DNA from: Heptranchias perlo
Lineage: Eukaryota
Assembly (NCBI RefSeq): GCF_035084215.1
Contig: NW_027138407.1
Location: forward strand, 1,426,001-1,490,000
DNA length: 64,000 bases
Reading direction: 5' to 3'
The notes under the pieces were generated by a model. The model did no database searches. It was not told the origin of the DNA and worked only from the letters and a program-made list of their open reading frames with translations. A program made the position numbers and the translations under genes. Positions 11,185-62,500 of this stretch are shown here, in pieces; positions within the stretch are counted from its first letter, which is position 1, and the number at the start of each line of letters is the position of its first letter.

Positions 11185-11505
11185 AGGACAAAACTCCGAA
11201 AGAGCCAACCGTGTCGGTCTTTTACCCGCCCGTGATACAAAATGGGGACGGGGACAGTGCCGATACGGTGGCGGTATGTCTGGTGTCGGAATTCTCCCCC
11301 AAGGAGATTGGGCTCTTCATGGATACGATCACTGTCCCAAAGACCAATGTCACGAGATCCAGTCACTTATTGAACAACGGGTATTACAGGAGCTCAGGGT
11401 TCCTCTCTTTCAATTCATCCAAACAATCAGTAAATGTCACGTGTGAGGCAAGACATAGGGCTCAATCTTTCTATGCAAAACGCGACAGCCAGGATTCTGC
11501 AGCCG
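11185..11505 (+). CDS. TRDC: TCR delta-type constant region exon 1 (Ig C1 domain), cassette 1
   Basis: TTTTCAG acceptor; PTVSVFYPP..AVCLVSEFSPKEI..YRSSGFL..VTCEARH with both Cys; GTGAGT donor; position downstream of NAR-TCR and supporting V implies delta. Confidence 0.85.
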
Positions 11506-11530
11506 GTGAGTAATAAAATGTTTCATAAAT

Positions 11531-11985
11531 AAAGAACTTGCATTTATAAAGTGCCTTCGACGGTCTCAGGAATTCCCAAAGCGCTTTACTTTCAATTAAG
11601 TATTGTTTGACGTGTAAACACAGTTGTAATGTAGGGGAACGCGGCAGCCAATATGTGCACAGGGAGATCCAACAAACAAAGCAATGTGATAAATGACCAG
11701 TTAATCTGTTTGAGGGATAAATATTGACCGGGACACCGAGGAGAACTTCCCTGCTCTTCTTCGAAATAGTCCCGTGGGATCTTCTGCATCCACTGGAGAG
11801 GACAGACGAGGCTTCCGTTAAACGTCTCAACCGAAAGACGGCACCTCGTACAGTGCTGCGCTCCCACAATACTTCCACTGGTAGTGTCGGCCTAGATTAT
11901 GGTCTCAAGTCCCTCGCGTGGGATTAGAACCAACAAACTTCTGATACAAAAGCCAGAGTGCTACCATTGAGCCACGGCTGACACA
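11531..11985 (-). mobile_element. tRNA-derived SINE in C intron 1 (similar copies at ~18615-19030 and ~50900-51360)
   Basis: Minus strand begins GTGTCAGCCGTGGCTCAATGGTAG (A box) with a GTTC B-box-like motif; dispersed copies in the window. Confidence 0.7.
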
Positions 11986-12157
11986 ATAATCGAAGGCCGA
12001 CTGTGATCAATAATAGGATGAAGAATCAATACTGCTACTTTGTTATTACTTCCTCCATTATTACTACCAGTAACGATAATAATAACAGTGATAATAATAA
12101 CGACAAAGCAACAACAAAGTAACTTACTCAATAAATCCTTTACATGTTTGTTTGCAG

Positions 12158-12229
12158 GCCCCGGCAGAAAGCCTGATTGTGGAAAACGTTCAAACAATTC
12201 CAGAGCAGGAATAAAGGACACGGAAACAG
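12158..12229 (+). CDS. TRDC: TCR delta constant exon 2 (connecting peptide GPGRKPDCGKRSNNSRAGIKDTET), cassette 1
   Basis: TTTGCAG acceptor, GTCAGT donor, phase 1/1; contains the interchain Cys. Confidence 0.85.
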
Positions 12230-12435
12230 GTCAGTGCCTCATGTTAAATATGTTTAGATAAAAGACAGACAGTCAGAAAAAAAAAGAGATGGATAGATAC
12301 ATAGATAGATGTATAATAACCAGCCAGCTAAATAGAGCAATACATTCCAATTTTGTGGTACTGATACATTTATTTTAGTGAAATACAGTAGGTTTGTTTC
12401 ACTAAATCAACTCCTTAATTTTATAATTAACACAG

Positions 12436-12545
12436 ATCGACCGAGGGTGAATTTTCTGTCTTTGACCGTGTTGGGATTGAGAGTTCTCTTTTTGAAGTGC
12501 GTTGCTTTCAATGTCCTGCTGACGGCCAGAGTGTGGTTATTTTAA
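12436..12545 (+). CDS. TRDC: TCR delta constant exon 3 (TM/cytoplasmic DRPRVNFLSLTVLGLRVLFLKCVAFNVLLTARVWLF*), cassette 1
   Basis: TCR alpha/delta TM signature with intramembrane R and K for CD3 assembly; TAA, then G and a GTGAGA donor. Confidence 0.9.
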
Positions 12546-15376
12546 GGTGAGACTGATTACCCCAATGGACATGCAGAATATAATTTGTTTTTAACAATAT
12601 TGTTAGCAATGAACTTGGCAATCATTAAAATCAATCTCTCCGTTCCCATTCCTATAACCGGTGGCCGATTCGCAACGCCACTCTTACACCAGACACTGAA
12701 AATAGTCTTGTACTATTTGGGAGTAAAATCCAACTTCGGCGTGGGCGCAAAACAACCTGTCGAGTATCGGCCTCCTCTGATACACCCTGTCCGATTTTCC
12801 TTTGCCTTATATTAGAATTATCACTCGATCCATCCACTGCCCATTTTACAACCCATCGAAGTTGAATTTTAACCCCTTTGTCTTCAGAAACTTGTCCAGA
12901 TTTGGAACATTTCTAATGTATTTCTGTGCCCCATTGAATAAAGCCTTAATATTGCCAAGCCCCAAATCAATAAATCTGCTCATGCATTTATCAATCTGTT
13001 TATTTTCTGTTGCACCTCTTCATTGCTTGAATATCCATTTTAAAACAAGATACCCACAGGTGCACACAGTACTCGAGTTGTGAACCAACTCACGATTTGT
13101 ACAAGTGCATCATCAGCCACTTGGTATGATGAGCCCTCTGGTATAGCATAACCTTGTGCTCAAATCTCTCCATGACCTCGCCCCTCCTTATCTCCAAATC
13201 CTCCTCCAGCCCTACAAGCCTCCGAGAACTCTGTATTCCTCCAGTTCCGGCATCTTGTGCATCCACCACTCCCTTCGCCTCACCACTGGCGGCCGTGCCT
13301 TCAGCTGTCTAAAACCTCCATAAAGCTCACCGCCTCTCCACATCTCCACTCCATGAAGATCGTCCTCAAAACCTGCCACTTTGACCAAGCTTGTGGTCAC
13401 CTGACCTTATATCTCCATATGTGTCTAATTTTGTTCGTAAACGCTGCTGTGAACGGCCTTGGGACGTTTTACTTCGTTAAAGGCGCTGCATGAATGTAAG
13501 TTGCTATTGTTGCTGTTGCAGCAAAATTAATGTCTTTGACTCGACTTTAAAATATCTGTCTATCTCTGGCCCCTGGATCTCACGGTTTCTCTGCTTGATC
13601 ACAATTCGGCTTATATTTCCATTCTCGATTCTTTTCCCCCAAACATGTTCGAGCTCACACAGGTCCACGATGAGCTCCCTTTGCCATATATCTCCCCGCT
13701 CTTCTGAACGACGCATGTCCTCCTGCAATCTGCCCCATTTTTTCCACCATGTCCCCATCCCTGAAATTATAGGTTTAGCAAAATTGATATCTCCTTCACG
13801 GCTATGTACAAATCACGCATGTCTACGAATAACAAGAGAGGTACAAACACCAAATCTACTCACATCCCACCAGCCACATTTTGCGAACCTGAAAAAAAAA
13901 CATTTACTACCTTCACTCTGTTAATTTCTAATATTTACCCGTTTCTGAGGTTGGGTTGCATAAACATGGCTTCTGTTCCCTTGAGTATAGAAGATTAAGG
14001 GGTGATCTGATGGAGCTGTTTAAAATGTTAAAAGCAGGCGATAGGGTAGATACAGAGAAACTATTTCCTCTTGTGGGGGAATCAATAACGAGGCGACATA
14101 ATCTGACAATTAGAGCTGGGACATTTAAAAGGGAAATCAGCAAGCATTTTTTTCACAAAAAGGGTGGTAGAAATCTAAAATTTCCTCTCCCAAAAGGTTA
14201 TGGATGCTGGAGAACAATTGAGCTTTCACGACTGAGACAGATAGATTTTTTCACAGAAGGGTATCAAGGGATATGGAGCTGATGTGGGAAAATGGCGTTG
14301 AGGCACAGATCAACCATCTCATTGAATGCAGACTCGAGGGGCTGAATGGCCTCCTCCTGTTCCTATTGTTCCTATGTTCGGTACTGGCCCACAAGCCCCT
14401 GGTACGGAATTCCGGTGCCATCTATATTTAAATACTATAACATGAAATGAATTGAAAGAGACTGCAACTCTATACCTTCATTGTCGCTGTTAGGTAGCGA
14501 GACCATTATGGGAGCACCTGCACCGCGTGGACTGCAGCGGTTCAATAAGAAGGCCCATTACCACCTTCTCAAGGGCAACTAAGGAGGACAATGAATGCCG
14601 TCCTTGCCAGCGACGCCCATATCCCGAGATTTTTTTTTAAAAACTGCATTGTTACAATTGAGCTAAAAAAATTGAACAGGAAATGTTGACCTAACAACTT
14701 ACAATGGTAACCGTATATCCATCAGGAAAGGCTGAACAGGCTGAGGCTCTTTTCACTCGGAAACAGAAGTCTGAGGAGTGACCTGATCGAGGTCTTTAGG
14801 ATTATGAAAGTGGTTGATAGGCTAGATGTAGAGAAGATGTTTCCACTCTTGATTTAAAACAAATCTAGGGGCCATAAATTAAAGATTGTCACCAATAAAT
14901 CCAATAGGGAATTCAATAGAAACGTCTTTACTCAAAGAGTGGTTAGATGTGGCTCTCGCTATCACATGAAATAGTTTAGGCAAATAGCATAGATGTATTT
15001 AAGGGGAAGCTAGATAAGTACATAAGGGAGTAAGGAATAGAAGGATATGTTGATAGGGTGAGATGAAGAGGGGTTGGAGGGTGTTAATGTGGATCATAAT
15101 CACTGGCATTGACTCGTTGGGCCGAATGGCCTGTATTTATGCTGTACATTCTATGTAATGCCAAGTAATATAGATAGAAGAACATAGGCAAGCCGTATGG
15201 ATGCGTTCAGTGATTCAGAATTTGCACAGCACAATTTTTCAAGGTGGAGAGTTGGGAGCAGAAATGCATTCATCATCTTAAAGTTGAATAAAGATTAAAC
15301 TTGTGATTTACTCGTACACTGTTCGATGTCACTTCTTGTACTCCACTCATTACTACTGGTTTTTTCAATCAAACAG

Positions 15377-16330
15377 GAATTCTCTCCGATGAAATGGATT
15401 CCAGCGTGAACACAACCCACTGGGAATTCAGAGCCCGAGACATCGAGTTCAGCTGACTCACCTTACTTTAATTCAATATAGCATGTGTTAAATGACTAAT
15501 TCTCTGCTGCTGCCACTGTTAAACTTTCTACTTTAGTAAACTTTTGTCCAATTGCTGTGACATATTGATTTTATACTCATAGTTTTGTGGAAGTCTCATT
15601 GCATGTACGAGGTAAACAAATTGATTACATGCATGAAAATCATAGATTTAAATATGTAGAGCACACAATTATGTTTTATGCTTGAATTAGTCATAAGAAC
15701 AGCTTCAAAATAGCATTTTAGATTAAAATAAAGATATAATTTTACATGTTTTTCTTCGAATCATGGCATCTTACAGCACAGACTGGGGACATTGGGCCCA
15801 TCGTGCCTGTGCCGTCTCTTTAAAAGAGCTTTCCAGTTGGTCCCACTCACCCTGCTCTTTCCCCAAACTCCTGCAAATGTTTGCTTTTCTCTGAAAGTTA
15901 TTTTAGTTTCTTTATTTCTTATAATTTAAATGCGCCAGATGGATTTCTTTGACAGACATCTGTCTGCATTGGAAGCAAAGCATTCAACTCAAGAGTTGTG
16001 TCTGAACTGTTACCAGGAAGGCTAGATTTAAAATATCCCGTAGCTATTCTCTCGTTCTGGTTTTAATGTCACTCTATCTTTACCATTTTGGGGGAGAGAT
16101 TTTCTCTGTTGGCCTCGCATTAGGAGCGTGACAAACGGAAAAGAAATTACCCTCTGTTCTCGATTGTCAGCGAGTGGATACTGTTTTGTTCTACTGTAAT
16201 CGTTTTCTCCGTGAATGTTTGGATGTACTGCCATTAATCATCTATATATTTGGTAAATGTAATGATGCGCGGTTTCAAACCTATTTTTCAAATTGTAACG
16301 CAATGTGAATAAAGCATTTAGTTTTGGTCA
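15377..16330 (+). other. Probable C exon 4 (3' UTR), cassette 1
   Basis: Conserved pyrimidine-rich ..CAAACAG acceptor in both copies; AATAAA at 16308 conserved at 55735; exon ends are inferred. Confidence 0.55.
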
Positions 16331-44001: not shown

Positions 44002-44044
44002 ATGGGAATCCTCCTTGTTTTCATCCTGTGTGTCTGTTTACCCC
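44002..44044 (+). CDS. NAR-TCR V2 leader exon (MGILLVFILCVCLP)
   Basis: TATA upstream; GTGAGT donor at 44045. Confidence 0.92.
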
Positions 44045-44189: not shown

Positions 44190-44482
44190 GCTCTTTCGGT
44201 CAGTCAGTGAAACAGGACCCGAGAGCGGTGACCAAGAAGGAGTGTCAGTCTCTCACCATCACCTGCGTTTTCAAAGGGCATTCTTTCTATAACTATTATT
44301 TTGAGCGTGGTGAATTCTTCCGACAAAGCCGGTCCGGGACAGAGCGGGAGCGGATCTCCAGCGGAGGACGATTTGTTGCGTCAACGAATCAGGCTAAAAA
44401 TATGTTTTCTCTGGAAATTCGGGATGCGAGAGTTGAAGATAGCGCCACCTATTACTGTAAAGCCCACTACAAGTACGACGAC
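44190..44482 (+). CDS. NAR-TCR V2 (IgNAR-like V exon)
   Basis: QSVKQDP..KECQSLTITC..FFRQ..GGRFVASTN..DSATYYCKAHYKYDD; RSS CACAGTG-22-ACAAAAACT (44483-44520). Confidence 0.93.
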
Positions 44483-45263: not shown

Positions 45264-45326
45264 GTGAATATAGATGGAAATATTATGATGTGGATGGACC
45301 CGGGACCGTGGTGACCGTCACAGCCG
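45264..45326 (+). CDS. NAR-TCR J2 (EYRWKYYDVDGPGTVVTVTA)
   Basis: GGTTCTTGT-23-CACTGTG (45225-45263); GTAAGT donor. Confidence 0.92.
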
Positions 45327-46921
45327 GTAAGTGACTCCAAACCCCGCCGTGTTACAGACTGTCCCGGTTAATATACACCGTCAGCTTATCATTGCGATTA
45401 TTATTACCTCAAAGTAAAATATAGCGGCTTTCGAAGGGGTCATTTCCATTGCATTTTTAAATTCAGGATCAGAATATGATCCGTGACTCGGGACTGGGTG
45501 TGATTCCGTAGAGAGGAGGAAGGAAACACCCCCCCTCCCCCCCCCCGACCCCACCTCTCCACGGAACAGGCAGTCGAGGGTTTGACCTCATCACGACCAT
45601 CATTGGATTGATCGGGATCCAGGGGATCCCATGACCATCCCGGACTCTTTCTCAGTCTGATCCCTTGTTGTTGTAAATGAGCGCAGATTGTCGACACTCC
45701 GGCCTCCGCTTGCGGTGTTAACTGTGACTGAGGGAGCTCTGCCTGTCCCTGTGAGCACGGCGGAGGTTTCAGAGCTCTCTGCTGGGCAGGAGCTGGCAGT
45801 CCGAGCCGGTAAGTGTGAATGAGGTACCGTTCGAGTAAACCCAAAACTACAGCGGCCCATTCGATAACAGCAGCGGCAGAAAAACTGGAGCATAACACGT
45901 CCGGGCTTCAGATACAAGAGATCCGCTGTAGGTCTGGAGGGCATTTCATGATTGGACACCCAGTGACTGAAATTAATTGCATTTTAGCAATCCACACGTA
46001 TCTGGAAAGATTGAACAGGCCGGGGCTCTTTTCTCTAAAATAGAGAAGAGTGCGAGGAGACCTAATAAGAGGTCTTTAAAATTATGAAGGTGTTCGATAA
46101 GGTGGATGTGGGGAAACGATTTCCACTTGAGGGTGAATCCAGAACAAGGGGTCATAAATATAAGACAGTCACTAACAGTAAAAGTAAAGAATTTTTGAGG
46201 AATTTACTTAGAGAGTGGTGAGAATGTGGAACGTGCTGCCACATGGAGTGGTTGAAGCAGATAACATTGACACATTTAAGGGGAGGATTGAGACATACAT
46301 GAGGGAGAAAGGAATAGAGAGATACGGGGTGGGGGGGTCAGGGTGGAAAATGGTAATTAGAGTTGGCGGGGGGTCGTTTGGAATCTAAACGCCGGCATAA
46401 ACCAGTAGGGCCGAATGGCGTGTTTCTATTCTGCAGGTTCAGTATATTGTAAAACTCAGAGAAAACTCCGTCCGGAGAGGTTCAACCAATGGTCTGAAGG
46501 AATTGACATTATTAGAGACTAGGAAGAGAGAGTTCCCAGAGAGTAACAGTAAAACGACTGCGGAAACTGCACAGACTGATCCCACGGATCAATGAGAGAC
46601 TCTGGGACAAGTTCTCAGGGTGGCGGGAAACCTCAAACAGCAGAGAGCGCGCGATCCTGGTGTAGAAATAAAATGAAAGTTACTATAGAATCTGCTCCCA
46701 CCGCCCTCTCAGGCAGTGCATTCCAGATCATAACAACTCGCTGCGTAAAAAAACATTCTCCTCTTCTCCCCTCTGCTAATTTTTCCAATGAAAGTAAATA
46801 AAGTTCGAACGGGCTTCAAATGAAGAACAACATTATCGCTAGAGGCAGATCTATTCATGTGATTGACAAGTGTCTAAACTGCAGCTAAAGAAATACTAAT
46901 CTCCCAATTTTTATCCTGCAG

Positions 46922-47232
46922 ATTCCAGTTTATCTGTGTCCCAGAGATTGCCTCGACAAACCTCTACTGCCGGTGACACCGTTACTATAAGTTGCGAATA
47001 TTCAGGGCTCTGTCCGTACACAGTACACTGGTACAGTCAGTGCCCAGGGCAGGCTCCGAAATACCTCCTACAGAGACACACTTCAGGAGCAGGGAATAAT
47101 AAAAACGCTGCCGGGGGCAGAATTTCTGCTTCTATCGATCCTGTCAAGAAAATCAGCCGGTTAATTATCTCCAAATTACAACTGAGTGACTCCGCTGTGT
47201 ATCACTGTGCACTGAGTCCGCGCACCGATACA
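46922..47232 (+). CDS. NAR-TCR supporting TCR-delta V2 (leaderless, CDR1 Cys)
   Basis: TISCEYSGLCPYTVHWYSQCPGQAP..DSAVYHCALSP; RSS CACAGTA-24-ACAATAACC (47233-47272). Confidence 0.9.
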
Positions 47233-47557
47233 CACAGTAGCTTGAGTCTGCTTATGTGCTCGTACAATAACCTCCCACCCACACAGAACGGTACAACAAC
47301 ATTCTCAACACCCCCAGGAAGGTTTGGTTACAATCAAGCAATGTTTATCCCAGGACCCTTATCGTTTTTCATTCTCTTTATCTTGTAATATTATTTCCCC
47401 TGGATATTTATTGCTGTGATCACATTGCGCGAACACTCCAAGACCGCTGGCGAATAAAGACATGACTCTAAGGCTTACCAGTCCTATCCTGAGAATCAGT
47501 TACTGGGAGATGTGGAGGAGATGCCAAGGGATCATGTTACAAGATTCAACGACATGG

Positions 47558-47768
47558 GACATAAGGCGACAAGAAAAGCTGACGTTTTGGAATGCAACCA
47601 GCTAAACTTTGGAACCCATTAAATATCTACTCCTCAATTTGGTCTCTCTCTCAACGCTTTCTCCTTTTACTATTCAGCGGTTTATTTTTAGTTATATTTT
47701 TACATAATAGTGTTGGGTGGGTGACAGCTGACATTTGGAACCCGGTACCAGATTGATTGTGCAACGAA
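47558..47768 (+). pseudogene. J-delta a and b pseudogenes, cassette 2
   Basis: KLTFWNATS* with donor lost; QLTFG followed by a frameshift, then GTRLIVQR. Confidence 0.6.
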
Positions 47769-48092
47769 GTAACTCGATTTGGGTCTTCTTTACCTCAATT
47801 CAGGGAGGTTTAGTGGATGATACAAAGTTAGGGTCTTTCCCTTCAACTGACATCCAGACCTTAGCACGAACACACACCTATGTACTGGAGGGAGGTGTTT
47901 CAATGACTTGCGTGTATAACGACGAAAGACAATTAAGCAACACTTCTAAACATGTCCAGTACGTAATTCAGCAAGACGCGGCCACAATCTAAGCCCCTGG
48001 TGCTTCTTTTAAGCTACAGTCCAGACAGTTACAGCACTCCTGGAACACTACATGTGTTCTCCGTGGTTTCTGTCTATTCAATTGTTAACGTG

Positions 48093-48158
48093 CAGGATAT
48101 TGGGATACTATCTCTAAACTAATATTCAGAAGTGGGACCAGAATTATTATAGACCCGG
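48093..48158 (+). CDS. J-delta c, cassette 2 (GYWDTISKLIFRSGTRIIIDP), non-canonical FRSG
   Basis: GGTTTCTGT-12-TAACGTG; GTAAGT donor. Confidence 0.75.
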
Positions 48159-48403
48159 GTAAGTAAAATGTAAGGATATTGTCTCGTTCTCCCCCCTTTT
48201 AGACTGGTGTTTGCCTTCTGGTGAATATTGGTAGTGGGACCAGGTATCTATTATTAAATCGCCGATGATATGATTTGCCCCATTAACGGGGGTTTGCGGT
48301 ACCCAGTTCGCTTTTCCAACAACGTGTCCTCTTTCTGCTGCGATGATGTGGAATTAGACCTGGTGGCGCTGTGTGGGTTTTTCGCTGGGTACTTATCACT
48401 GTG

Positions 48404-48465
48404 TGGATTAGGGTATACTGCTAAACTAACATTTGGAAACGGAACTGAAGTGATTGTAGAGCCAA
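48404..48465 (+). CDS. J-delta d, cassette 2, canonical (GLGYTAKLTFGNGTEVIVEP)
   Basis: GGTTTTTCG-12-CACTGTG (48376-48403); GTAAGT donor. Confidence 0.92.
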
Positions 48466-49010
48466 GTAAGTAACATTTAAGCAAATTACTCGCCCTTTTG
48501 TAAAAATAAAAGATGCATGGCATGTCGTATCTGCTAATTATTGGCGGACGAGCGAGGCAACGGTTTTTGGGAAGAAAGAAATAATAAAGAAAGAAAGATT
48601 TCATTCATATAGCGCTTTTCCTGACCTCAGGGAGTCTGAAGGTGCTTTATAGCCAATGGAGTATTTTAAAAGTGTGCACACTGTTGTAATGTAGGAAACG
48701 CGGCAGGCAATTTGTTCACAGCAAGTATACATTATTTCCATCAAGATAATAAATTGGATGCAATTGAGAGGTTTCCTCTATCCGCATACCCGCGAGGGAA
48801 AGAAACCAGCGGTGGCTTCAGGATCTGCGGAATCATTCTAAATGTTGCTTGTTGAATCATTACTCACGGATTAATATAGGGGACCTTAAATCGTTTCATG
48901 TACCAGTCATATTTGAGAAGTTGTGTTGTGTTCCCATTCATTTGGTGGAGGATATGCAGAAATATGCAGATGTGCACAGATCGGTCCTTGTTTTGAAATT
49001 TAACACCGTG

Positions 49011-49074
49011 TTTGGCGGTGGATATACAGATGTCCTTACACTGGAAAATTGAACCAAATTCAGTGTAGAGTTGA
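49011..49074 (+). pseudogene. J-delta e, cassette 2, pseudo (FGGGYTDVLTLEN*TKFSVEL)
   Basis: GGTCCTTGT-12-CACCGTG; in-frame TGA. Confidence 0.78.
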
Positions 49075-49609
49075 GTAAGTTCAAATAGCCCATGTCTCAT
49101 GCACATTAATTTTTTTAAAAAACAATAATCTGGATTCACAGATCATTGTGTTTCGATATTTTGCGATCGATGTACGTTTAGATATTATGGGGTGGGTTTT
49201 TCTCGCAAAAGCCAAACTTACACAAGCATAACTAATCCGTAAAAATCCAGTTGTTTGATCGCGAGAATTATGGTGGCCCATGGAATTAAACCAGTAATCT
49301 ACATTTGCTGGAAAAAAAGGGAAATCATATTTTTAACGTGGGGAACTAGAGTCAGTGGATGAAGATATAATGCTTGCCACGTTATATAAGGATTTGAGCA
49401 ACTAACATCAAATTAAGGCGAGGAGGAGTCATCAATTTAAAATAGCCACTAAGGGGAGGGAGATGAGAGAAATTTCTGAACACAGTGTTATTGGAAAATG
49501 GGATGCGAATGAATTGGGAATTGTTGAGGGGTTTAAGATGATTAAAGGATTTGATAGGGTAGATTGAGAGATGCTAATTCCTCTGGTGGGGGAGTCCAGA
49601 ACAAGAGGT

Positions 49610-50160
49610 TAGGTCACAGCTTGATTACTGTGTACAGTTCTGGTCACCACATTACAGGAAGGATGTGATTGCACGGGAGAGGGTGCAGAGGAGATTTACG
49701 AGGATGTTGCCAGGACTGGAGAATTTTAGCTATGAGGAAAGTTTGGGTAGGCTGGGGTTGTTCTCTTTGGAACAGAGAATACTGAGGGGTGATTTAATTG
49801 ATGTGTACAGAATTATGCAGGGCTTCGATAGAGTGGATAGGAAGGACCTATTTCCCTTAGCAGTGAGGTCAATAACCAGGGGGCATAGATTTAAAGTGAT
49901 TGGTAGAAGGATTAGGGCGGAGCTGAGGAAATATGTTTCCATCCAGAGGGTGCTGGGGGTCTGGAACCCTACTGCCTGAAAGGGTGGTAAAGGCAGCAAC
50001 CCTCAACTCACTTATAAAGTATCTGGATGTGACCTACAAGGCTACGGACCAAGTGCTGGGAAGTGGGATTAGGCTGGGTGGCTCATTTTCGGCCTGCGGC
50101 GGACACGATGGGCCGAATAGCCTCCTTCCCTGCCGTCAACTTTCTATGATTCTTTGATTC
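49610..50160 (+). mobile_element. CR1-type LINE 3' fragment inserted only in the cassette 2 J-C intron
   Basis: ERVQRRFTRMLPGL..LGLFSLEQR.LRGDL; interrupts an older LINE tail that is contiguous at ~10810 in copy 1. Confidence 0.82.
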
Positions 50161-50553
50161 TAAGAAGGCATAACCTTAAAATTAGAGCTAGGCTTTTCAG
50201 GGGTGATGTCAGGATGCACTTTTTCACACACATGGCAATGGGTATCAGGAACTCTCACCACGAAAGACTATTGAGGCTGGGGGTCAACTCAAAATGTCAA
50301 ATCGGAGATTGATCGATTTTTGTTAGGCAAGGGCATTAAGGGTTACGGTACCAAGGCGTGTAAATGGAATTAAGATACAGATCAGCCATGATCTAATTGA
50401 ATAGTGGAACAAACTCGAGTTGCTGTTTTTTTTTAAATGTGTGGACCATTATTTTAATATCGAATTTCATTATCAGTCATTTATTGATGCATCGCTCTGC
50501 GCTCACATTGATGAATTCCGAATAATTTACCCGTTCTATTCTTTAATTTTCAG

Positions 50554-50874
50554 AGGAGAAAACTCCGAAAGAGCCAACCGTGTCCGTCTTTTACCCGCCT
50601 GTGATACAAAGAGGGGACGGGGAGAGTACCGACAAGGTGGCGGTATGTCTGGTGTCGGAATTCTCCCCCAAAGAGATTGGGCTCTTCATAAATACGACCA
50701 CTGTCCCAAAGATCAATGTCACGAGATCCAGTCACTTATTAAACAACGGGTATTACAGGAGCTCAGGGTTCCTCTCTCTCAATTCATCCAAACATTCAGT
50801 AAATGTCACGTGTGAGGCAAGACACATGGCTCGATCTTTCTATTCAAAACGCGACAGCCTGTATTGTGCGGCTG
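50554..50874 (+). CDS. TRDC: TCR delta-type constant exon 1, cassette 2
   Basis: Same 321-nt exon as 11185-11505, open frame; ends SLYCAA (new Cys). Confidence 0.85.
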
Positions 50875-51668
50875 GTGAGTAATAAAATGCTTCATGGAAG
50901 AAAGAACTTGCTTTGATAACGGGCTTTTCACACTCTCAGGAATTCCTAAAGCGTTTTACATGCAATGAACTACTGTTTGAAGTGTAGTTTCTGTTGTAAT
51001 GTAGGGAAACGCGGCAGCCAATATGCGCACAGGGAGATCCCACAAACAAAGCAATGTGATAAATGACGAGTTAATCTGTTTTACTGGCGTTGGTTGAGGG
51101 ATAAATATTGACCAGGACACCAAGCAGAACCCCCTGCTCTTCGAAATACTTCTATGGGATCTTTTATACCCACCGGAGATGCCAGACGGATCCTCGGTTG
51201 AACATCTCATCCGAAAAACAGCACCTCCTGCAGTGCAGCGCTTCCGCAATGCTGGCATTGGTCGTATCAGCCTCCATAATGGTCGCAACTCTCTGGAGTG
51301 GGATTTGAGCCCAAAACCTCTGATAGAGAAACCAGATTTCTACAACTGAGCCACGGCGGATACAATTATCGAAGCCCGACTGTGATTAATAATGGGCTAA
51401 GTAATCAATACTAAGTAATCAAGGCTATGGACCAAATGCTGGAATATGGGATTAGAGTAGACAGGGCTGATGGCCGGCGCGGACACGATGGGCCGAAGGG
51501 CCTCTATCCGTGCTGTATGACTCTATGACTCTATGACAATACTACTGCTTTATTATTACTTCCTCAATTACTGCTACAAGTAACCATTATAAAAACAGTG
51601 AAAATAATGACAACAATAGCAACAACAAGGGAATATAGACAATAAATCATTTAAATGCTTGTTAGCAG

Positions 51669-51753
51669 GTCCCGCCAGAAAGCCAGATTGTGGAAAACGT
51701 TCAAATAATTCCAGAGCAGGAATAAAGGGCGCGCAAATGTTAAAAATGTTTAG
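51669..51753 (+). CDS. TRDC: Constant exon 2 (hinge), cassette 2; normal splice donor deleted
   Basis: GPARKPDCGKRSNNSRAGIKGAQMLKMF; about 14 nt containing the GTCAGT donor are missing relative to copy 1; next strong-looking donor is AG/GTAAAA at 51754 (phase 2). Confidence 0.7.
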
Positions 51754-51931
51754 GTAAAAGGCAGACAGGCAGAAAAAAATATAAATAGATAGATACCTAG
51801 ATTAATGTATACTAGCCAGCTAGATAGATAGAGCAATACATTCCAATTTTTTGTTACAGAAATATTTATTTCAGTGAAATACAGTGGGCTTGTTTAACTA
51901 AATAAACACTTTAATTTGATAATTATTACAG

Positions 51932-52041
51932 ATCTACCGAGGGTGAATTTTCTGTCTTTGACCGTGATGGGATTGAGAATTCTCTTTTTGAAGTGCGTTG
52001 CTTTCAATGTCCTGCTGACGGCCAGAGTGTGGTTACTTTAA
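51932..52041 (+). CDS. TRDC: Constant exon 3 (TM: DLPRVNFLSLTVMGLRILFLKCVAFNVLLTARVWLL*), cassette 2
   Basis: Intact acceptor, TM motif with R and K, GTAAGA donor. Confidence 0.88.
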
Positions 52042-54799
52042 GGTAAGATTGATCACCCCAATGCACATGCAGAATATCATTTGTTATTCACAATATTGTT
52101 CGTAATAAACATGGCAATTAATAAAGTAAATCTCTCGATTCCCATTGCTATAACCGGAGGCCGACCCACAACGACACTGTTGCACCAGACACTGAGAATA
52201 GTCTTGTACGATTTGGGGGTGAAATGCAACTTCGGCGTGGGTGCAAAATGGCAGGTTGGGTATTGGCCTCCGCTTATACACTCTGTCCGATTTTCCTTTG
52301 CCATGTTGTACAATGATCAACCGATCCCTCTACTGCCCAATTTTGCGACCCATCGAAGTTCAATTTTAACCCCTTTGTCTTCTGAAAGTTGTCCAGATTT
52401 GAAACATTTCTAATGTATTTCTGTGCCACGTTAGTTTCGCCAAGTCCATCATCAATAACTCCGCTCATGCCTTTACAAATCTACTCATTTTCTGTTGCAC
52501 CTCTTCATTGCTTGAATATCCAGTTTTAAAACAAGATGCCCACAGATGCACACATTATTCCAGTTGAGGCCCAAACAACGTTTTGCAAAAGTGCATCATC
52601 AGCCACTTGGTATGATGAGCCTTCTTGTTTAAACTAATCTTGTCCTCAAATCCCTCCATGACCTCGCCACTCCTTATCTCCATAACCTCTTGCAGCTCTA
52701 CAAGCCTCCAAGAACTTGACGTTCCTCCAATTCCCGCCTCTTGTTTATCCTCCACTCCCTTCGCCTCACCATTGGCGGCCGTGCCTCCAGCTGCCTAGAC
52801 CGTGAGCTCTGTAATTCCCTCCATAAACCTCTCCGCCTCTCCATACCTCTCCTCCTTGAAGATCGTCCTCAAAACCTGCCTCATTGACCAAGCTTATGGT
52901 CACCTGAACTTAAATCTCCTTATGTGTCTAATTTTGTTTGAAGACGCTGCTCTGAAGCGCCTTAGGGCGTTTTCCTATGTAAATGGCGCTCTGTAAATGC
53001 AAGTTGCTGTTATTCACGTTACAGCATAAATTCTGTCATTGACACTACTTTCAAATATCTGTCTATCTCTAACCCCTGGATCTCTCGGTTTCTCTGCTTG
53101 ATCATAATTCGGCTTATATTTCCATTCTCGATTCTTTTCCCCCAAACATGTTCGAGCTCACACAGGTCAACGATTAGCTCCCTTTGCCATATATCTCCCC
53201 GCTCTTCTGAACGACGCATGTCCTCCTGCAGTCTGCCCTATTTTTTCCGCCATGTCCACACCCCAAAAATTATATGGTCAGCAAATTTGATATCTCCTTC
53301 ACGCCTATATCCAAATCAAGCATTTCTATGAATAACAAGAGAGGTACAAACACCAAATGTGTTCACACCCCACCAGCCACATATTGCTGGACTGAAAAAT
53401 AACATTAACCACTGTTAATTTCTAATCTTGAGCCATTTCCGAGAACAGATTGCATAAACATGGCCTGTATTCCATTGAGTATCGAAGATTGAGGGGTGAT
53501 CTGATCGAGTTGTTTGAAATGTTAAAAGCAGTCGACAGGGTAGATGCAGAGAAACTATTTCATCTGGTGAGGGAATCCATAATGAGGCGACATAATTTTA
53601 CAATTAGAGCTAGGAAATTTAGAAGGGAAATCAGGAAGCATTTTTTCGCACAAAGGGCAGTAGAAATCTGAAATTGACTCTCCCAAAAGGCTGTGGATGC
53701 TGGGGAACAATTGAGCTCTGAAGACTGAGACAGATAGATTTTTGTTAGATAAGTGTATCAAGGGATATGGAGCTGAGGTGGGAAAATGGCGTTGAGGCAC
53801 AGATCAAACATGATCTCATTAAATGGCGGCCTTGGCTAGAGGGGCTCAATGACCTACCCCTGTTCCTACTGTTCCTATCTTCGATACTGGCCCACAAGGT
53901 CCTGGTACGCAATTCCACTGCCATCTATGTTTATAGGCTATAACATGAACTCAATTGACAGAGAATGCAACTCTATACATTCATCGTCGCTGAGTCAAAA
54001 TCCTGGGCCTCGCAACCTAACAGCATCATGTCAGTCCCTTCAGCGCGTTGGCTGCAATGGTTCAAGAAGAAGGCCCATCACCACCTTCTCAAGGGCAACT
54101 AAGGATGGGCTGTAAATGCCGGCCTTGCCAACGATGCCCAAGGCCCGAGACTTTTTTTCAAACTGCATTTTAACAGTTGAATGAAAATATTGCTCAGGAA
54201 ATTTTGACATAGCAACTTACAATGATAACTATATGCCTATCAGGAAACGCTGAACAGGCTGGGCCACTTTCCTTGAGACAACAGAAGCCTGAGGTGTGGA
54301 CTGATAGAGGCCTTTAGGATTATGAAAATGCTTGATAGGGTAGACGTAGAGAAGATGCTTCCACTCGTGAGGGAGACAAAGTCGAGGGGTCATAAATAAA
54401 AGATAGCCACCAACAAATCCAATCGGGAACTCAGTAGAAATTGCTTAACCCAGAGAGTGGTAAGAATGTGGAACTCGCTATCGCTTGGAATAATTGAGGC
54501 AAATAGCATAAGTGCATTTAAAGGGAAGCTGGATAAGTACATGAGGGAAGATGGAATGGAAGGTTATGTTGATTGGCTGAGATGAAGAATGTATATTAAA
54601 TCTATGTAATATAGATAGTCGAACAGAAGCAAACTATATGGATGCGTTCAATATTTGAGAATTTGCACAGCACAATTTTCCAAGGTGGAGAGTTAGAGAC
54701 TGAAATACATTCGTCATCTAAAAGTGCTCTTTTCACGTACACTGTTCAATGTAACTTCTTGCAATCCACTCATTACTACTGGTGCTTTTATTCAAACAG

Positions 54800-55760
54800 G
54801 AATTCTCTCCGATCAAATGGATTCCAGCGTGAGCACAACCCATTGGGAATCCAGTGCCCTTGACATCGAGTTCAGCTGACTCAATTTACTTTAGTTCAAT
54901 TTAGCAGGTTTTAAACGGCTAATTCTGTGTTGCTGGAACTGTTGAACTTTCTTCTTTAGGAAACATTTGTTCAATTTCTGTGACATATTTTTATAGTCAT
55001 AGTTTTGTGGAATGCTCATTGCATATATTAGGTAAACAAATTAAATGAATGAAAATCATAGATTTAAATATATAGAGCTCGCAATTATGTTTTTATGCTT
55101 GAATTAGTCAAAAGAACAGTTTCAAAATAGCACTTTAGCTTCAAATAATTACAGAATTTTACATGCTTTTCTTAGTATCATTGAATTTTACGGCACAGAC
55201 TGAGGACATTGGGCCCATCGTGCCGGTCCCGGCTCTTTAAAAGTGCTATCCAATTAGTCAAACTCACCCTGCTCTTTCCCCAAACACCTGCAAATGTTTG
55301 CTTTTCTCTGATAGTTATTTTAATTGCAGTTTGGTTTTATTTTATATCATTTAAAAGCGCCCGATGCATTTCTTTGATAGACATCTGTCTGCATTGGAAA
55401 CAAACCGTTCAACTCAAGCGTTGTATCTGAATTGTTACCAGGAAGGTGAGTTTTAAAATATCCCGTAGCTATTCTCTCGTTCTGGTTTTAATGTCATTCT
55501 TTCTTTACCATTTTGGGGAAGAGATTTTCTCTGGTCGCCTCGCATTAGCTCCGTGGTAAACGTGGAGAGAAGTTACCCTCTGTTTGCGATTGGCAGCGAG
55601 TGGGCACTGTCTTGTTCTCCTGTCATCGTTTTCTCCTTGATTGTTTGGTTGCACATCAATTAATTATTATTACATTTGGTAACTTTAATGAGGCGAAATT
55701 TCAAATCTATTTTTCCCACTTGTAACGCAATGAGAATAAAGGATTTACTTTTGGTCAACA
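54800..55760 (+). other. Probable C exon 4 (3' UTR), cassette 2
   Basis: TTCAAACAG acceptor; AATAAA at 55735; paralogous to 15377-16330. Confidence 0.55.
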
Positions 55761-58379
55761 TATCGAATGAGTTGCCTTTCTCTTTGAATATTAAGGGGAA
55801 CTTTGGGGGGTCCCTAATCTAAAATTATTTTACAATACTAAAGTCTCCGGCGCTCGATCAGTCATCAATTTTAATTTTTCCATCGGTTTATTTTAAATTA
55901 AGCGGTAGCAGAAGGGTTAATTGACTGTAAGCTCCTTGTTTCGACCACAACTGTTAAGAGCTAACGGTTCACGAGTTGTATCTTGACTGGGCAAGCCAGA
56001 GCTCCGTTGACAAGGCAACCAAGGGCAGCAGGAAATGCGTTGAAGGTGCGATTTCAGCGAACACGGTCTCGGAATCTGTCAGTTTGAACACATGGGCAAA
56101 CTGCGGTTTTATCGCCTGGGGCTGGAATCGAAAGCAGCGGGGTGGCAGTTTGGCGGTGAGGGGGGGGCGAATGTTGCAATGAGCAAGAACAAAAAATAAT
56201 AGCAACATTAACAAGGGACTTTCTGAGCAACACGGATTGAGGCAGGTTGTTTTTTTAAAGCATCAATTTTATCTGTTATTTAGACTGCAACGAAAATCAA
56301 TCAAAAAACACATGGCCAGGTTGCACTCCTGTGAATGCACTTGTTGGTTACCAGAAATCATAGAATCATACAGCACATTCGGCCCATCGTGTCCATGCCG
56401 GCTTTTTGAAAGAGCTATCCAATTAGTCCCACTCCCCCCTGCTCTTTCCCCATCGCCCTGGAAATATTTCCTTTTCAAATGTGTATCCAATTCCCTTTTG
56501 AATGTTACAATTGAACCAGATTCCACGACTATCTAAGGCAGTGCATTCCAGATCTTAACATCCCACTGCGTTAAAAAATTCTCCTCATTTCCACCGGATT
56601 TTCTTTGCTAATTATCCTAAATCTGCGTCCTTTGGTTACCTACCTTTCTGTCACTGGAGACAGTTTCACCCTATTTAATCTATCAAAACCCCTCATCATT
56701 TTGAACACTTCTATCAAATCTCCCCTCAACCTACTTTGTTCTAAGGAAAACCACCCCAGTTTCTCCAATCTCCCCACAATCTATGAAGTTATTGGCTGAA
56801 GTAACATTAAAATGTAAAGTCTGAATGCAGCCATACAGTATACTTGCGTCAGCCTGTTTATATACTTTACTCAAGATATTACCGAACTTAAAATTTTAAT
56901 TGTTACATGGTCGTCTGCTTCCACAAAGGATATTTAGGAGCAAATCCTTCTCAGTCCCCAAAATCCTTCCCTTCCTCCTCAAATCCATATAGACGTGGTG
57001 AGTACAAATTCCACCATTGGCAATTTGTGAAACTGAATTTTAAAAACATCTGTTAATTTGCGAGCTAGCACCAGATTAAATTACACTGAAAACAGCGGGA
57101 TTGTGGTAATAACCGAAATGGGCCACTAACGCCTTTCAGGGGACCGACCTGCCCCAATGCAGAAACAGAACATTGCGGAAACACTCAGCAGGTCAGGCAC
57201 GATCTATCGGGAGAGAAACAGAGTTAACGTTTCAGGTCGATGACCTTTCATGAGAACTGGAACATGTTGCAGACGAACAGTACAGAGCCAGGGGATAAAA
57301 GTTTGTAGGCGGAGAGGGGTTGGTGGTGCAGGGAAAGAACAAAAGGGAAACTCTGTGTTCAGATGGAGCGGCAGGAGATGGTTAAATGAGAAAATGGATG
57401 ATGGTGTAAGGCAAAAGGTAATGGGACAAGTAAAGAAAACAATAAAGGTGGGTCTGGAGGCGGTGTCACTGCTTACAGTAGAATAGCAGAGGCGGAGGGA
57501 AGCATGGAAATCCGGCCCGGGGGTGAAGGCTCCCGTGGCCCTGGATTATGGAGGAAGAAAGGCAGTTGGACCCCACCCCGCCGGCCGATAGGGGTTCCCT
57601 ATCCATTCGGTACTACACTTGACTTCAACCACACAGTAAGCTGTTGCCTCTGAATGTCCTCGGGGAACTAGGGATGGGCTGTAATTACTGTCATATCAGG
57701 AAGTGAACCCGTCTCCTTGTCCCTCCATTGAAATTAGTGGAACAAAAATCCGGCGGGTTCTGTTCTGGGCTTTCCAGCCATTCAGACAGATCTCCTTTAC
57801 TGTGCTCCATCCGGGCGATAATTAAAGGCCAGAGGGTAAAGGCTAAAAGCTAGTTACAATCTCTTCGTTTTTCATAAATCATCGCATTTTGCAACACATA
57901 ATATGGTCATTCGGTCGGCTGTCTTGTTATTTTACATAGAATTTACAGCACAGAAACAAGCCATTCCGTCCAACTAGTCTATACCGGTGTTCATGCTCCA
58001 AACGAGCCTCCTACCTCCATGAGTAATCTCACCCGAACGACAAACCCTTCTATTCCTTTCCGCCTCATGTATTTCTCTAGCTTCCCTTTAAATGCATCTA
58101 TGAATTTTAAGAGTTATCCACCAATTCCCTTTATCCTGTACTTGCCCAGGCCACTTTTTCAGATTTCATTATTTCCCGGTTTTCCTTTGAATGCCATGAT
58201 GAATTTTATATCATTATTTTCATCACTGTTTCTGCCAGAGTATTCTGACTATCATCCCCTAGTATCTTCGTTCGTTTGGTACATAGAATTTACAGCACAA
58301 ATACAGGCCATTCGGCCCAACTGGTCTGTGCCGATGTTTATATTCCACACGAGCCTCCTACCACCCTACTTAATCTTGT

Positions 58380-59500
58380 ACTATAGAAACACAGAAAATA
58401 GGAGCAGGAGTAGGCCATTCGGCCCTTCGAGCCTGTTCCGCCATTCAATATGATCATGCCTGATCCTCTCTCCCCATACCCCTTGATGCCTTTTGTGTCT
58501 AGAAATCTATCCAGCTCCTTCTTAAATATATTCAGTGACTTGGCCTCCACAGCCTTCTGTGGTAGAGAATTCCACAGGTTCACCACCCTCTGAGTGAAGA
58601 AATTTATCCTCATCTCAGACCTAAATGTCCTACCCAGTATCCTGAGACTGTGTCCCCTCGTTCTGGACCCCCCTCCCCAGGGGAAAGATCCTCCCTGCAT
58701 CCAGTCTGTCTAGCCCTGTCAGGATTTTATATGTTTCAATGAGATCCCCTCTCATTCTTCTAAACTCTAGTGAATACAGGCCGAGTCGACCCAATCTCTC
58801 CTCATACGACAGTCCTGCCATCCCAGGAATCAGTCTGGTGACCCTTCGCTTCACTCCCTCGATGGCAAGTATATCCTTTCTTAGGTGAGGAGTCCAAAAC
58901 TGCACACAATACTCCAGGTGTGGTCTCACCAAGGCCCTGTATAACTGCAGTAAGACATCCTTGCTCCTGTACTCAAATCCTCTTGCAATGAAGGCCAACA
59001 TACCATTTGCCTTCCTAACTGCTTGTTGCACCTGCATGTTTGCTTTCAGTGACTGGTGTACAAGGGCACCCAGATCCCTTTGTACATCAACATTTCCCAA
59101 TCTATCACCATTTAAATAATACTCTGCCTTTCTGTATTCCTTCCGAAGTGGATAACTTCACATTTATCCACATTTCACTGCATCTGCCATGTATTTACCC
59201 ACTCACTCAACTTGTCTAAATCGCCTTGAAGCCGCTTTGTATCCTCCTCACAACTCACGATATCAGCTCGTTTTGTGTCGTCAGCAAACTTGGAAATATT
59301 ACATTTGGTTCTCACCTCCAAATCATTGAAATATATTGTGAATAGCTGGGGCCCAAGCACTGATCCCTGCGGTACCCCACCAATCACTGCCTGCCACCCC
59401 GAAAAAGACCCATTCATTCCTACTGTCTGCTTCCTGTCTGTTAACCAATTTTTAATCCATGCCAGTATATTACCACCAATCCCATCTTCTTTAATTTTGT
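58380..59500 (-). mobile_element. CR1-type LINE, 5'-truncated (RT C-terminus and tail)
   Basis: GVPQGSVLGP..KFADDTK and LVRPHLEYCVQFW motifs (ORFs 59175-59417 and 58630-59100). Confidence 0.9.
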
Positions 59501-62500
59501 CATATCATCATATCCTTCCCATCCTTTCTCCCTCATGTATTTATCTAGCTTCCCCTTAAATGCATCTATATTATTTGCCTCAACTACTCCTTGTCGTAGC
59601 GAGTTCCACATTCTCACTACTCTCTGAGCAGAGAAGTTTCTCCTGATTTTTTTGTGGTGATATTAAATTAAAACCGTTTAGTTATTGACAGGTCGGCCAT
59701 TGGTAATATTTGGCCCCAATTTAACTTCTGAAAGCTTCTAGTAAAACAAGCTCCTGTTTCAATCTTTCTTTTAAAATATGCAAGGATTTACTTTAATATT
59801 GAAGCAGAAAAAAGTCATGGTCACTTGTTTTTTCTTCTGGACACCAAGACATCCAGAAAACAATAAAATTTAAACGTTGAACTTAACATAACAAAGAAGA
59901 AACAATAAGAGGAAATAGAAACGTTAAGAAAGAATGAAAGAAGGATGGAAGGTGAGAAAGAAAGAGAAATAAACAAATGAAGAAAGAAAGATGGACAGAA
60001 TGAAAGAAAAAACATGCAAGATTTTGTATTGTGCTATTGCCAGGACAATTCAAATAATCTAATTTCATACTCTAGTTCGTGCATTTATCAAGACGAGAGT
60101 CTGAATTGAAAGCGGATATGGTGGTCCAGTACTTGGAGATTAGAGTTAATCCAAAACAGAGTGTGCAGTGAGCTCAGCTGCTGCAAGTAGCTTAGTGCAA
60201 CAGTGTCGCATCTGTAATATCATTGATTGGCAGTCATGGCGTAGAATGACAAGCCTAAGCAGAAAACATAAACGCCTCACTTGTTAGAATCTTGAAGCAC
60301 AGAAGGAGGCCCTTCAGCCCATCGAGACTGTGCCGGCCTTTTTAAGAGCTTTCCAATTGGTACCACTCAACTATTCGAACCCCACAGCCCTGCAAGTTTC
60401 TCCTTTACAAGTAGATATCCATTTCTGTTTTGAAAGTTTCGATTGAATCTGCTTCCACCACCCTCTCAGCCAATGTATTCCAGATCACAACAACTCGCTA
60501 CATTAAAAAAATTGCTCGTCAAAACGTCATAATTTTCAACACCTCCATTAAATCTCCCCTAAACTTTCTCTGCTCTAAGGAGAACAACCCCAGTTTCTCC
60601 AGTCTCTCCACATAACTGAAGTCCCTCATACGTGTTACAATTTTTATAAATCTCTTCTGCAACATCTCCAAGGCCTTGATATCCTTCCTAAGGTGTGGTG
60701 CCCAGAATTGGACTCAACACTACTGCTGAGGCCTATCCAGTGATTTATAAAGGTTGAGCATCCGTCCTAAGCCTTGCCCCATTCAACCCCAAATGCATTT
60801 GAATCAAGAAGATATATTAATAATCTGAAACCCCGAATCCCCCTTTATGGACCCACAGTTCCTTTATAAAAATGCAAAATACCCCAGAATTCATTACTTT
60901 TATTGATAGTTTGCTTTCCGTATCCAGTATGTGGCGGCGGTTGACCGGGAGTTGGGGGGGGGGCGTTGGCGGGGGACTGGGGTGAATAGCAGTTGGAGCT
61001 TTGTTTCCATTATGTGCGAACTAACTGATCAGTAACGATGAGAAACCAGTTTTTTTAGATGAACAGTTCTGGATCGCGCAACATTTTGTACACGTTTCCT
61101 CTCTACTTTTGTACTGTGATATGCGTGTTGGGCGCCCTCTATTGGCTGCCAGTTGCTATGGATGACATGCATTTTGAAAGTGAATGGTCGTGCACATGGA
61201 ATGGATTTAGAAACGTCTCCTGAAGTTATATCTTTCACTCTGCAATTGAACACTTGAATCTTTACAGGTTTTATGCTCCATGCTAACCGATCAGGTTATA
61301 CCTCTCAGCAAAGATTGAACAGGCTGGGCCCTTGTCTTTAATCCGTGTCCTCTGGTTACCGACCCTCCGACCAGTTGAAACATTTTCCGCCTATTTTCTC
61401 TATCAATACCCTTCGCACCTTTCAGTGCTGGTAGAAATAATTGCTGCGTCGTCAATTTGGGGACAGTAAACTTAATAGATTTCTATAGCCAAATGTTACA
61501 CAGAAATGCAATTCTTGTTTATGCATTATCCCTAATATCGTAGAATTATTGAATGTTACAACACAGAAGGAGGCCATGTGGCCCATCGTGCCTGTGCCGG
61601 CTCTTTTCAAGAGCGATCCAATTAGACAAACTTCCCCCTGCTTTTCCCCATAGCACTGCACTTTTCACCCTTCGAGTATTTATCCACTTCCCTTTTGAAA
61701 GTTCCCATTCAATCTGCTTCCACCACCATTTCAGGCAGAGCATTTCCAGATAGTAATAACTCGCTGAATAAAAAAAAATCTCCTCATCTCAACTCTGGCT
61801 CTTCTGCCTATTACCTTAAATACTGCAACCCTTCTGCTGGTGGAAATAGTTTCTCCCTATTTACTCTATTAAAACCCTTCATGGCATTGAACACCTCTAC
61901 CAAATCTCCTCTTGACCTTCTCTGCTCTAAGGAGAACAATCCCAGCTTCTCCAGTCTCTCCACATAACTGAAGCCTCTCATACCTGGTACCATTCTCGTA
62001 AATCTCGTCTGCACTTCCTCAAATATCTTACAATTTTCTGTCCAAAGATACCGCACTCCGAAATAATCCATTGTTCCTGAAGAACTCTGAGTGGTTTCTG
62101 TGAGACGTGAGAATCGATGGCACAAGTCAAAGCTTTTTCATTCTATTTTTGCTGTAATGCGCTGGAGTTTAAAATAGTTTCAAATTATCACTGCAAAGAT
62201 ATGATTTCTTCCTTCCTTTCTTCTTTCCTTCATTTTCATTTCTTCCAGTTACACCCTAAGATAAGATTAATTTATACAATCTAGAGAGACGTTTTACTTC
62301 AAAGGGACAATAAAGTATTCCTGCACTTGAAGGCAAATTAAAATATATTCTATATTTTACATGCAAGATCAGTAATACGCGGTAGGTATCTACAGACCCC
62401 TGTGTTGATTGTCTCGACAATTAATTATGTTGAGTCCGCTCTTTATTTGTAAATTAAATTCTGATGCCCAGTCTATATCTGAAGCGTCACGAGGGACATG

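Follow-up and report, generated by a model that had tools for sequence, protein, structure and literature searches.

A T cell receptor (TCR) delta constant (C) gene of Heptranchias perlo has lost the donor splice site of its hinge exon, and we favor, at somewhat under even odds, a reading in which this exon is mainly skipped and a short-stalked, membrane-bound NAR-TCR delta chain is made. Criscitiello reportedly showed in 2006 that NAR-TCR is a doubly rearranging shark TCR delta chain. The gene belongs to one of two NAR-TCR cassettes in a 64,000-nt stretch of H. perlo DNA (hereafter the window), which was analyzed on sequence alone and in one assembly. An earlier note on this DNA had named three outcomes of the lesion, a secreted chain, a hinge-skipped chain and a decaying gene, with the secreted chain in the lead. 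All three were retained but their order was not: the hinge-skipped membrane form now ranks first, decay second and the secreted form third. The skipped form was placed above the secreted one because it is in frame, keeps the transmembrane (TM) segment intact, corresponds to the NCBI gene model and is accompanied by a new Cys residue and a weakened exon-2 acceptor. The standing given to each reading is our judgement and not the outcome of a computation.

Self-comparison of the window revealed a unit of about 20 kb present twice, at approximately 3300-23900 (copy 1) and 42970-62500 (copy 2). Each copy comprises a leader, a NAR-type V with D and J segments, a supporting V accompanied by several J pieces, and a C gene of four exons. 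Since the introns around the C exons differ by 16-18%, the two copies are old paralogues rather than alleles. An NCBI protein from H. perlo, P0001, is 100% identical to the copy-2 C domain, and a second protein, P0002, represents a third paralogue located outside the window (80% and 91% identity to two C exons); by these matches, there are at least three C-delta copies in the genome. Identity of 39-49% to other shark chains, together with the TM motif, marks the C gene as delta-type, although the automatic NCBI name says alpha. The leader and V type of the cassette 2 NAR V match homologues P0004 and P0006, and it is on this likeness and on the architecture that the putative NAR-class assignment rests. 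In copy 2, neither stops nor frameshifts interrupt the leader, either V (NAR or supporting), the main J, C exon 1 or the TM frame.

Copy 2 has suffered a net deletion of 15 nt, corresponding to positions 12226-12240 of copy 1, between 51736 and 51737. The earlier note had correctly recognized the loss of the exon-2 donor but put it at about 14 nt; with 15 nt the frame is preserved. The original donor (CAG/GTCAGT, position 12230 of copy 1) is absent from copy 2. As the note had also pointed out, an AG/GTAAAA motif unique to copy 2 has appeared downstream, with GT at 51754-55 where copy 1 reads AT; its use would yield an 85-nt exon 2 ending in phase 2. The homologous site of copy 1 would likewise be in phase 2, and the ancestor of both copies may have had both donors. 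The splice-site scoring proposed in the note was carried out with the U1 and donor consensus motifs, donors being scored by U1 duplex energy and consensus count; recombination signal sequences (RSS) were assigned by their own consensus motif. The 51754 donor matches 6 of 9 consensus bases, against 7 or 8 in each of 13 real donors scored; its U1 energy (-6.7 kcal/mol) is weaker than that of 12 of these 13, yet it falls in the top 4.3% of 3458 GT sites. Two phase-1 GT sites within exon 2 were considered as in-frame rescue donors and rejected (U1 energies -1.5 and +0.5), and none of the 23 GT/GC sites examined stood out as an in-frame alternative. On the other side of exon 2, the acceptor pyrimidines drop from 12 to 9 of 17 in copy 2, with pyrimidine-to-purine changes outnumbering the reverse 7:0 (112:111 in intron 3, taken as baseline); this loss is suggestive only.

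How far these changes depart from the family was assessed on 21 homologue rows besides P0001, 17 with a TM motif and 4 without (P0015 and P0016 were left out). One of the latter four, P0009, is a delta-like fragment that ends without a TM segment. An exon-2 connecting peptide bearing the interchain Cys and lying in frame with the TM exon is present in all 17 TM-bearing rows and is lacking in copy 2.

Three products can be predicted. Exons 1 and 3 are both in phase 1, therefore skipping exon 2 joins them in frame; the resulting product A has 36 residues after exon 1 and an intact TM segment (maximum 19-residue hydropathy, 1.91). The NCBI model P0001, a computational prediction with junk in its J region, makes this same join between copy-2 exon 1 and exon 3. 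Product B, obtained through the 51754 donor, lacks a TM segment and extends 86 residues beyond exon 1, the last 58 of which follow the hinge. Translation bore out the earlier note in that this donor shifts the TM exon into a stop-free, hydrophilic frame (maximum hydropathy, 0.56). It did so too for product C, in which exon 2 is read through without splicing: only 29 residues are added, without a TM segment, before a stop at 51755-57. This stop lies 285 nt upstream of the exon 3/4 junction and, by the usual rule for nonsense-mediated decay (NMD), would make product C an NMD target unless the transcript is cleaved in intron 2. The realistic expectation would be a mixture of products A and B, the question being which of the two is selected.

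The TM exon that product A would retain is well preserved. Exon 3 differs between the copies at 4 of 111 nt, as compared to 16-18% for the flanking introns. All four differences change an amino acid in the TM frame, three of them between hydrophobic residues, and two yield the majority residue of 16 homologues (Met in 14/16, Ile in 10/16). No synonymous TM-frame change was found at 27 sites (P 0.013 against the intron rate; 0.11 against exons 1-2). As the TM-frame stop precedes the exon-3 donor by 1 nt, exon 4 is 3′ untranslated region (UTR) in the normal gene.

Four features went beyond the earlier note: the pyrimidine loss at the exon-2 acceptor, an AATAAA at 51901, a donor motif at 55446 and a Cys codon at 50865-67. 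The last specifies residue 104 of exon 1, which is Cys in copy 2, Ser in copy 1 and Tyr in the third paralogue, P0002. No extra Cys occurs between the F-strand Cys and the hinge Cys in any of the 17 TM-bearing homologue rows. In the predicted fold of the C domain the last strand stops at residue 96, which places Cys104 in the linker (pLDDT below 50 for residues 101-106). Ungapped extension of the C-domain alignment sets it opposite the penultimate residue of a lambda light chain, which we take to be the interchain Cys. The chance of a new Cys arising within the last 6 codons of exon 1 is 1.4-2.7%. Differences between the copies cluster at this end, with 5 of the 26 in exon 1 falling in its last 15 nt (P 0.006, uncorrected); a search of the window for a templated source of the changed end gave no 18-nt match with fewer than 5 mismatches. 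Exon 1 as a whole is under moderate constraint only (pN 0.074, pS 0.109 between the copies). Foldseek comparisons with the C-domain fold returned generic C1-set matches only, and a PDB search with P0001 listed V-region matches. Separately, copy 2 has gained a sequon for N-glycosylation in its C domain, at residue 46 (50691-50699), and the exon-2-skipped form loses the sequon of the hinge.

These features can be assembled into a tentative mechanism. With the hinge donor deleted and no good replacement at hand, exon 2 would no longer be defined and would mostly be skipped. Joining exon 1 to exon 3 in frame would produce a C domain connected to an intact delta TM segment by a very short stalk, and the skipped mRNA, whose stop lies 1 nt before the last junction, should escape NMD. 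Cys104, at the end of exon 1, would replace the lost hinge Cys in the disulfide to TCR gamma; in the skipped chain the distance to the free Cys would shrink by 10 residues. This would yield a receptor of three domains, bound to the membrane on a short stalk. Some frameshifted mRNA without the TM segment probably leaks through the cryptic donor, and the protein made from this mRNA would be unable to recruit CD3 and would probably be retained and degraded. According to the accessible part of PMC6060985, mutations of canonical splice sites usually lead to skipping, use of a cryptic site being the alternative. Precedent for a missing hinge exon or Cys is provided, in the accessible text of PMC7349638, by salmon TRGC4 and TRGC6, which lack exon 2, and by human TRGC2, which lacks the Cys.

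Several observations weigh against hinge skipping as the main route. The stalk of the skipped form would be unusual, with 26 residues from the F-strand Cys to the TM motif, versus 43-50 in the 17 homologue rows, and 8 residues from the free Cys to the TM motif, versus 15-22 in the same rows; mammalian delta stalks are largely invariant in length, at least in the accessible part of PMC11485255. The motif AGGT(A/G)A does not occur in 14,215 nt of sense intron (eight stretches), where 8.9 occurrences are expected, and is found 5 times on the antisense strand. Its absence from sense introns suggests that the spliceosome recognizes the new donor at 51754, so that this donor is probably recognized and some use of it likely. 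The acceptor argument is weakened by the other three C-exon acceptors, which lean in the same direction (7:2 pooled). Copy-2-only residues make up 3 of 22 in exon 2 and 13 of 106 in exon 1 (P 1.0), showing no faster decay of exon 2. With divergence in exon 2 no greater than in exon 1, the deletion may have occurred recently, and Cys104 may have been there before it. Either copy may hold the derived state of the differences.

Copy 2 could instead be a redundant paralogue in early decay, giving rise to skipped, frameshifted and intron-retaining mRNAs none of which is selected, while its other features drift. We rate this as rather unlikely. The three or more C-delta copies of the genome provide redundancy; another donor motif found only in copy 2 (8/9 consensus, -10.7 kcal/mol) lies at 55446, in what appears to be the terminal exon; the intron-retention stop is placed where it would presumably trigger NMD; the stalk of the skipped form is outside the family range; and exon 1 is but moderately constrained. 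A splice-site lesion, one mark of a pseudogene, is indeed present, yet the skip route around it is in frame. Decay is at odds with the open state of the remaining coding segments, with the strong conservation of exon 3 and with a Cys that is improbable by chance at its position. Moreover, donor-like sites with at least 7 matches number 4 per copy, with no general excess in copy 2. We consider it very unlikely that the sequenced animal carried the deletion as a rare allele, or that faulty assembly created it. We are dealing, it is true, with a single assembly and a 1.7-Mb scaffold in a repeated locus, and the NCBI model derives from the same sequence. However, a 15-nt deletion in non-repetitive DNA with substitutions nearby is atypical of long-read errors, and introns diverged by 16-18% are those of paralogues, not of alleles.

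A functional secreted NAR-TCR delta chain, made through the 51754 donor by a frameshift across the TM exon and ending in a 58-residue hydrophilic tail with a penultimate Cys, either alone or as a switch with the skipped form, is in our view unlikely, although the sequence offers some arguments for it. The spliced product is open and hydrophilic (0.56 versus 1.91) and its stop is in what is presumably the last exon. As the earlier note had reported, the tail frame of exon 4 has a TGA in copy 1 and TCA in copy 2; however, the "early TGA" of copy 1, which is codon 5 of this frame, sits in the normal 3′ UTR since the TM-frame stop comes before the exon-3 donor. All 7 differences between the copies in the first 63 nt of exon 4 suit the tail frame: 4 are synonymous, 1 removes the stop, 1 makes the Cys and 1 makes the final stop. 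The probability of at least 4 synonymous changes out of 7 is 0.035, but it climbs to 0.10 when any of the three frames is allowed. Starting from copy 1, an open frame with a penultimate Cys arose in 2 of 40,000 simulations, an event defined post hoc; in intronic controls (5082 positions), at least 20 open codons were found in 41% and a penultimate Cys in 1.3%. The lack of synonymous TM-frame changes in exon 3 is what dual coding predicts, and the donor motif is one otherwise absent from the sense intron stretches scanned. On the other hand, copy 1, too, has no stop in the alternative exon-3 frame, nor do 19-24% of the sequences obtained by recoding the TM peptide at random with synonymous codons, and 3 of the 4 exon-3 changes are non-conservative in this frame. 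Low pS is also seen in the leader and the supporting V and points to gene conversion. The tail lacks a sequon, gives no Pfam match that passes the cut-off and depends on a weak donor and a weakened acceptor. Protein searches covering matches of 58-2000 residues gave none with both this C domain and the tail, a negative of little weight since H. perlo is represented by gene models only; a search restricted to 58-186 residues gave no candidates. A literature search on the Heptranchias T cell receptor gave no match, and a natural secreted TCR was not found in literature searches, most subscription papers being outside their reach. A TM-less delta chain would also leave its V and C faces unpaired and would need a soluble partner or a homodimer. 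Without the Arg and Lys, it cannot make the CD3 contacts of the human complex, as far as these are set out in the accessible part of PMC11485255. In a version of the switch that we consider quite unlikely, exon 2 would work in antibody-like fashion, its skipping giving a short-stalked membrane NAR-TCR and its inclusion through 51754 a secreted, disulfide-linked NAR-TCR delta chain; if the ancestor had both donors, copy 1 would have retained the route to the membrane and copy 2 that to secretion. The most improbable of the readings is intronic polyadenylation in the manner of immunoglobulin (Ig) genes, whereby exon 2 would be read to the stop at 51755-57 and cleavage in intron 2 would leave a short secreted chain with both Cys residues. 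Its product is open and hydrophilic, the AATAAA at 51901 is found in copy 2 only, and a second AATAAA, inside exon 2 of both copies, has in copy 2 lost the donor downstream of it. But AATAAA occurs in 46% of intron-2 shuffles, the exon-2 acceptor is weakened, the read-through frame of copy 1 reaches the same stop, and the assembly problem is that of any TM-less delta chain.

Table 1. Coordinates of the features of cassette 2 and of the copy 1 C gene in the window.
Feature	Position	Strand	Remarks
Leader exon, cassette 2	44002..44044	+	open; phase-1 donor; 1/43 nt unlike copy 1
NAR-type V exon	44190..44482	+	open frame; V-set; RSS at 44483, 22-nt spacer; 21% divergent from copy 1
D segment	44863..44876	+	flanked by two 12-nt RSS
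NAR J segment	45264..45326	+	23-nt RSS; phase-1 donor; joined to supporting V in NCBI model P0001
Supporting V-delta exon	46922..47232	+	open; V-set; RSS at 47233, 24-nt spacer
Three more J-like pieces, cassette 2	near 47560, 48100, 49020	+	look defective or atypical
Intact J-delta	48404..48465	+	FGxG motif, 12-nt RSS, donor
C-delta exon 1	50554..50874	+	encodes C1-set domain; frame open; intact phase-1 donor
Cys found in copy 2 only (residue 104 of 106)	50865..50867	+	outside Ig fold; candidate substitute for hinge Cys
Exon-2 acceptor region	51629..51668	+	7 pyrimidine-to-purine changes, 0 reverse vs copy 1; AG preserved, with a new tandem AG 3 nt upstream
Remnant of hinge exon 2, carrying canonical hinge Cys	51669..51753	+	original donor lost to 15-nt deletion after 51736
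Copy-2-only phase-2 cryptic donor AG/GTAAAA	51754..51759	+	overlaps read-through stop 51755-57; 6/9 consensus; U1 duplex -6.7 kcal/mol
Copy-2-only AATAAA, intron 2	51901..51906	+	found in 46% of shuffles; compatible with chance
Exon 3, encoding the delta-type TM segment that bears Arg and Lys	51932..52042	+	stop 52039-41; alternative frame open in both copies
Exon 4, putative terminal 3′ UTR exon	54800..55740	+	ends near AATAAA 55735 common to copy 1; alternative-frame tail ends 54863
Copy 1 C-delta gene (control)	11185..15456	+	exons 11185-11505, 12158-12229, 12436-12546, from 15377; splice sites all intact

In both copies an AATAAA lies about 930 nt into exon 4. The donor motif at 55446 is approximately 290 nt upstream of it and could make polyadenylation less efficient or introduce an intron into the UTR. 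Exon 4 also has a phase-1 frame (15377-15456; 54800-54879) that runs open over 25 codons and ends at the same stop in each copy; through this frame skipping of exon 3 would give another TM-less chain. Splicing of exon 1 or 2 straight to exon 4 is not favored: 5 of 7 changes are non-synonymous in the 25-codon frame.

Each NAR-TCR cassette (4669-16310; 44002-55740) has its own J segments and C-delta gene, forming a mini-cluster like that of TCR mu. Shark TCR loci are described as translocons in the accessible parts of PMC5931798, PMC12227049, PMC6795676 and PMC3457774. In Mustelus asterias, 8 NCBI models with C-delta, 5 of them with a NAR-like V, lie on contigs of 8 different lengths; judging from these models the mini-cluster layout may be widespread, and it is possibly of more interest than the hinge lesion. 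Three J-like extras per cassette (8660-10310; 47540-49090) show altered FGxG motifs, stops or weak RSS. The supporting V-delta can be spliced directly to the NAR J, which has a phase-1 donor matched by the V acceptor, and P0001 joins both. In this V (8045-8395; 46922-47272), 24 nt separate the second Cys from the heptamer, where five ordinary V genes in the window have 10-11 nt; its RSS spacer is 24 nt, and a separate D-delta upstream of the J segments was not found. The supporting V may be a germline-joined V-D. The intron before it and the V itself diverge little between the copies (45990-47232 versus 7110-8355: 2.4% in the intron, V pS 0.027), whereas nearby divergence is 13-18%; this stretch is likely a gene-conversion tract. 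Conversely, the NAR V (44190-44482) and NAR J (45264-45326) differ by 21% and 19% between the copies, against 7-14% for neighboring non-coding DNA, an excess that fits diversifying selection, as expected. About 11 exons or fragments of ordinary TCR V genes occupy 24900-41100, which separates the two cassettes, and 62880-64000, beyond the second; most are on the minus strand, some carry stops or have no RSS, and parts of 35780-41400 and 62500-64000 are mutual repeats.

If hinge skipping is indeed the main route, copy 2 would encode a natural short-stalk TCR delta chain with a relocated interchain Cys. The accessible part of PMC11485255 indicates that stalk length governs the flexibility and signalling of the gamma-delta receptor. 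With its three domains, a NAR-TCR may manage with a shorter stalk, or may require one, and copies 1 and 2 would offer a natural pair for comparison. Should the secreted form prove real, the line between membrane-only TCR and secreted antibody would be blurred in a lineage where both share the NAR V; a true switch would amount to a naturally secreted T cell receptor with a V of the single-domain antibody type.

In Ig genes the secretory tailpiece, with its polymerization-driving beta-strand, is encoded by a stretch that prolongs the last C exon; the copy-2 tail would arise by a frameshift through the TM exon. In likening the two, the earlier note was right about the penultimate Cys (background 1.3%), which the predicted tail shares with IgM and IgA, but the likeness does not extend to the sequon or to the length. 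In the accessible part of PMC7709107, the tailpiece of IgM has its glycosylation site at Asn563 and follows immediately on the last C domain with a length of about 18 residues. The copy-2 tail has no sequon, the sole one after residue 100 being in the hinge, and measures 58 residues (86 after exon 1); judged by these features it is not an Ig tailpiece. TCR mu of marsupials and monotremes offers another parallel, with a three-domain, delta-like chain encoded in duplicated clusters and, in platypus, a supporting V that rearranges without D (PMC3457774). Unlike copy 2, TCR mu has VH-related V domains and is regarded as convergent, and the accessible part of that paper makes no mention of hinge loss. 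The salmon TRGC4 and TRGC6 and human TRGC2 genes resemble copy 2 as duplicated C genes devoid of the hinge exon or the interchain Cys and yet considered potentially functional in the accessible part of PMC7349638. They differ from it in encoding gamma chains, whereas copy 2 is a delta gene in which exon 2 persists as a remnant and exon 1 carries a new Cys. The closest match is NAR-TCR itself as presented in the accessible parts of PMC5931798, PMC12227049, PMC6795676 and PMC3457774: copy 2 has a NAR V-D-J before a supporting V-delta, a J and a delta-type C with the Arg/Lys TM segment. It departs from NAR-TCR in the deleted hinge donor, in the extra Cys of exon 1 and in the window's arrangement, where cassettes have each their own J and C, in contrast to translocons. 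Thus, the predicted product of copy 2 resembles a NAR-TCR delta chain save for the canonical hinge.

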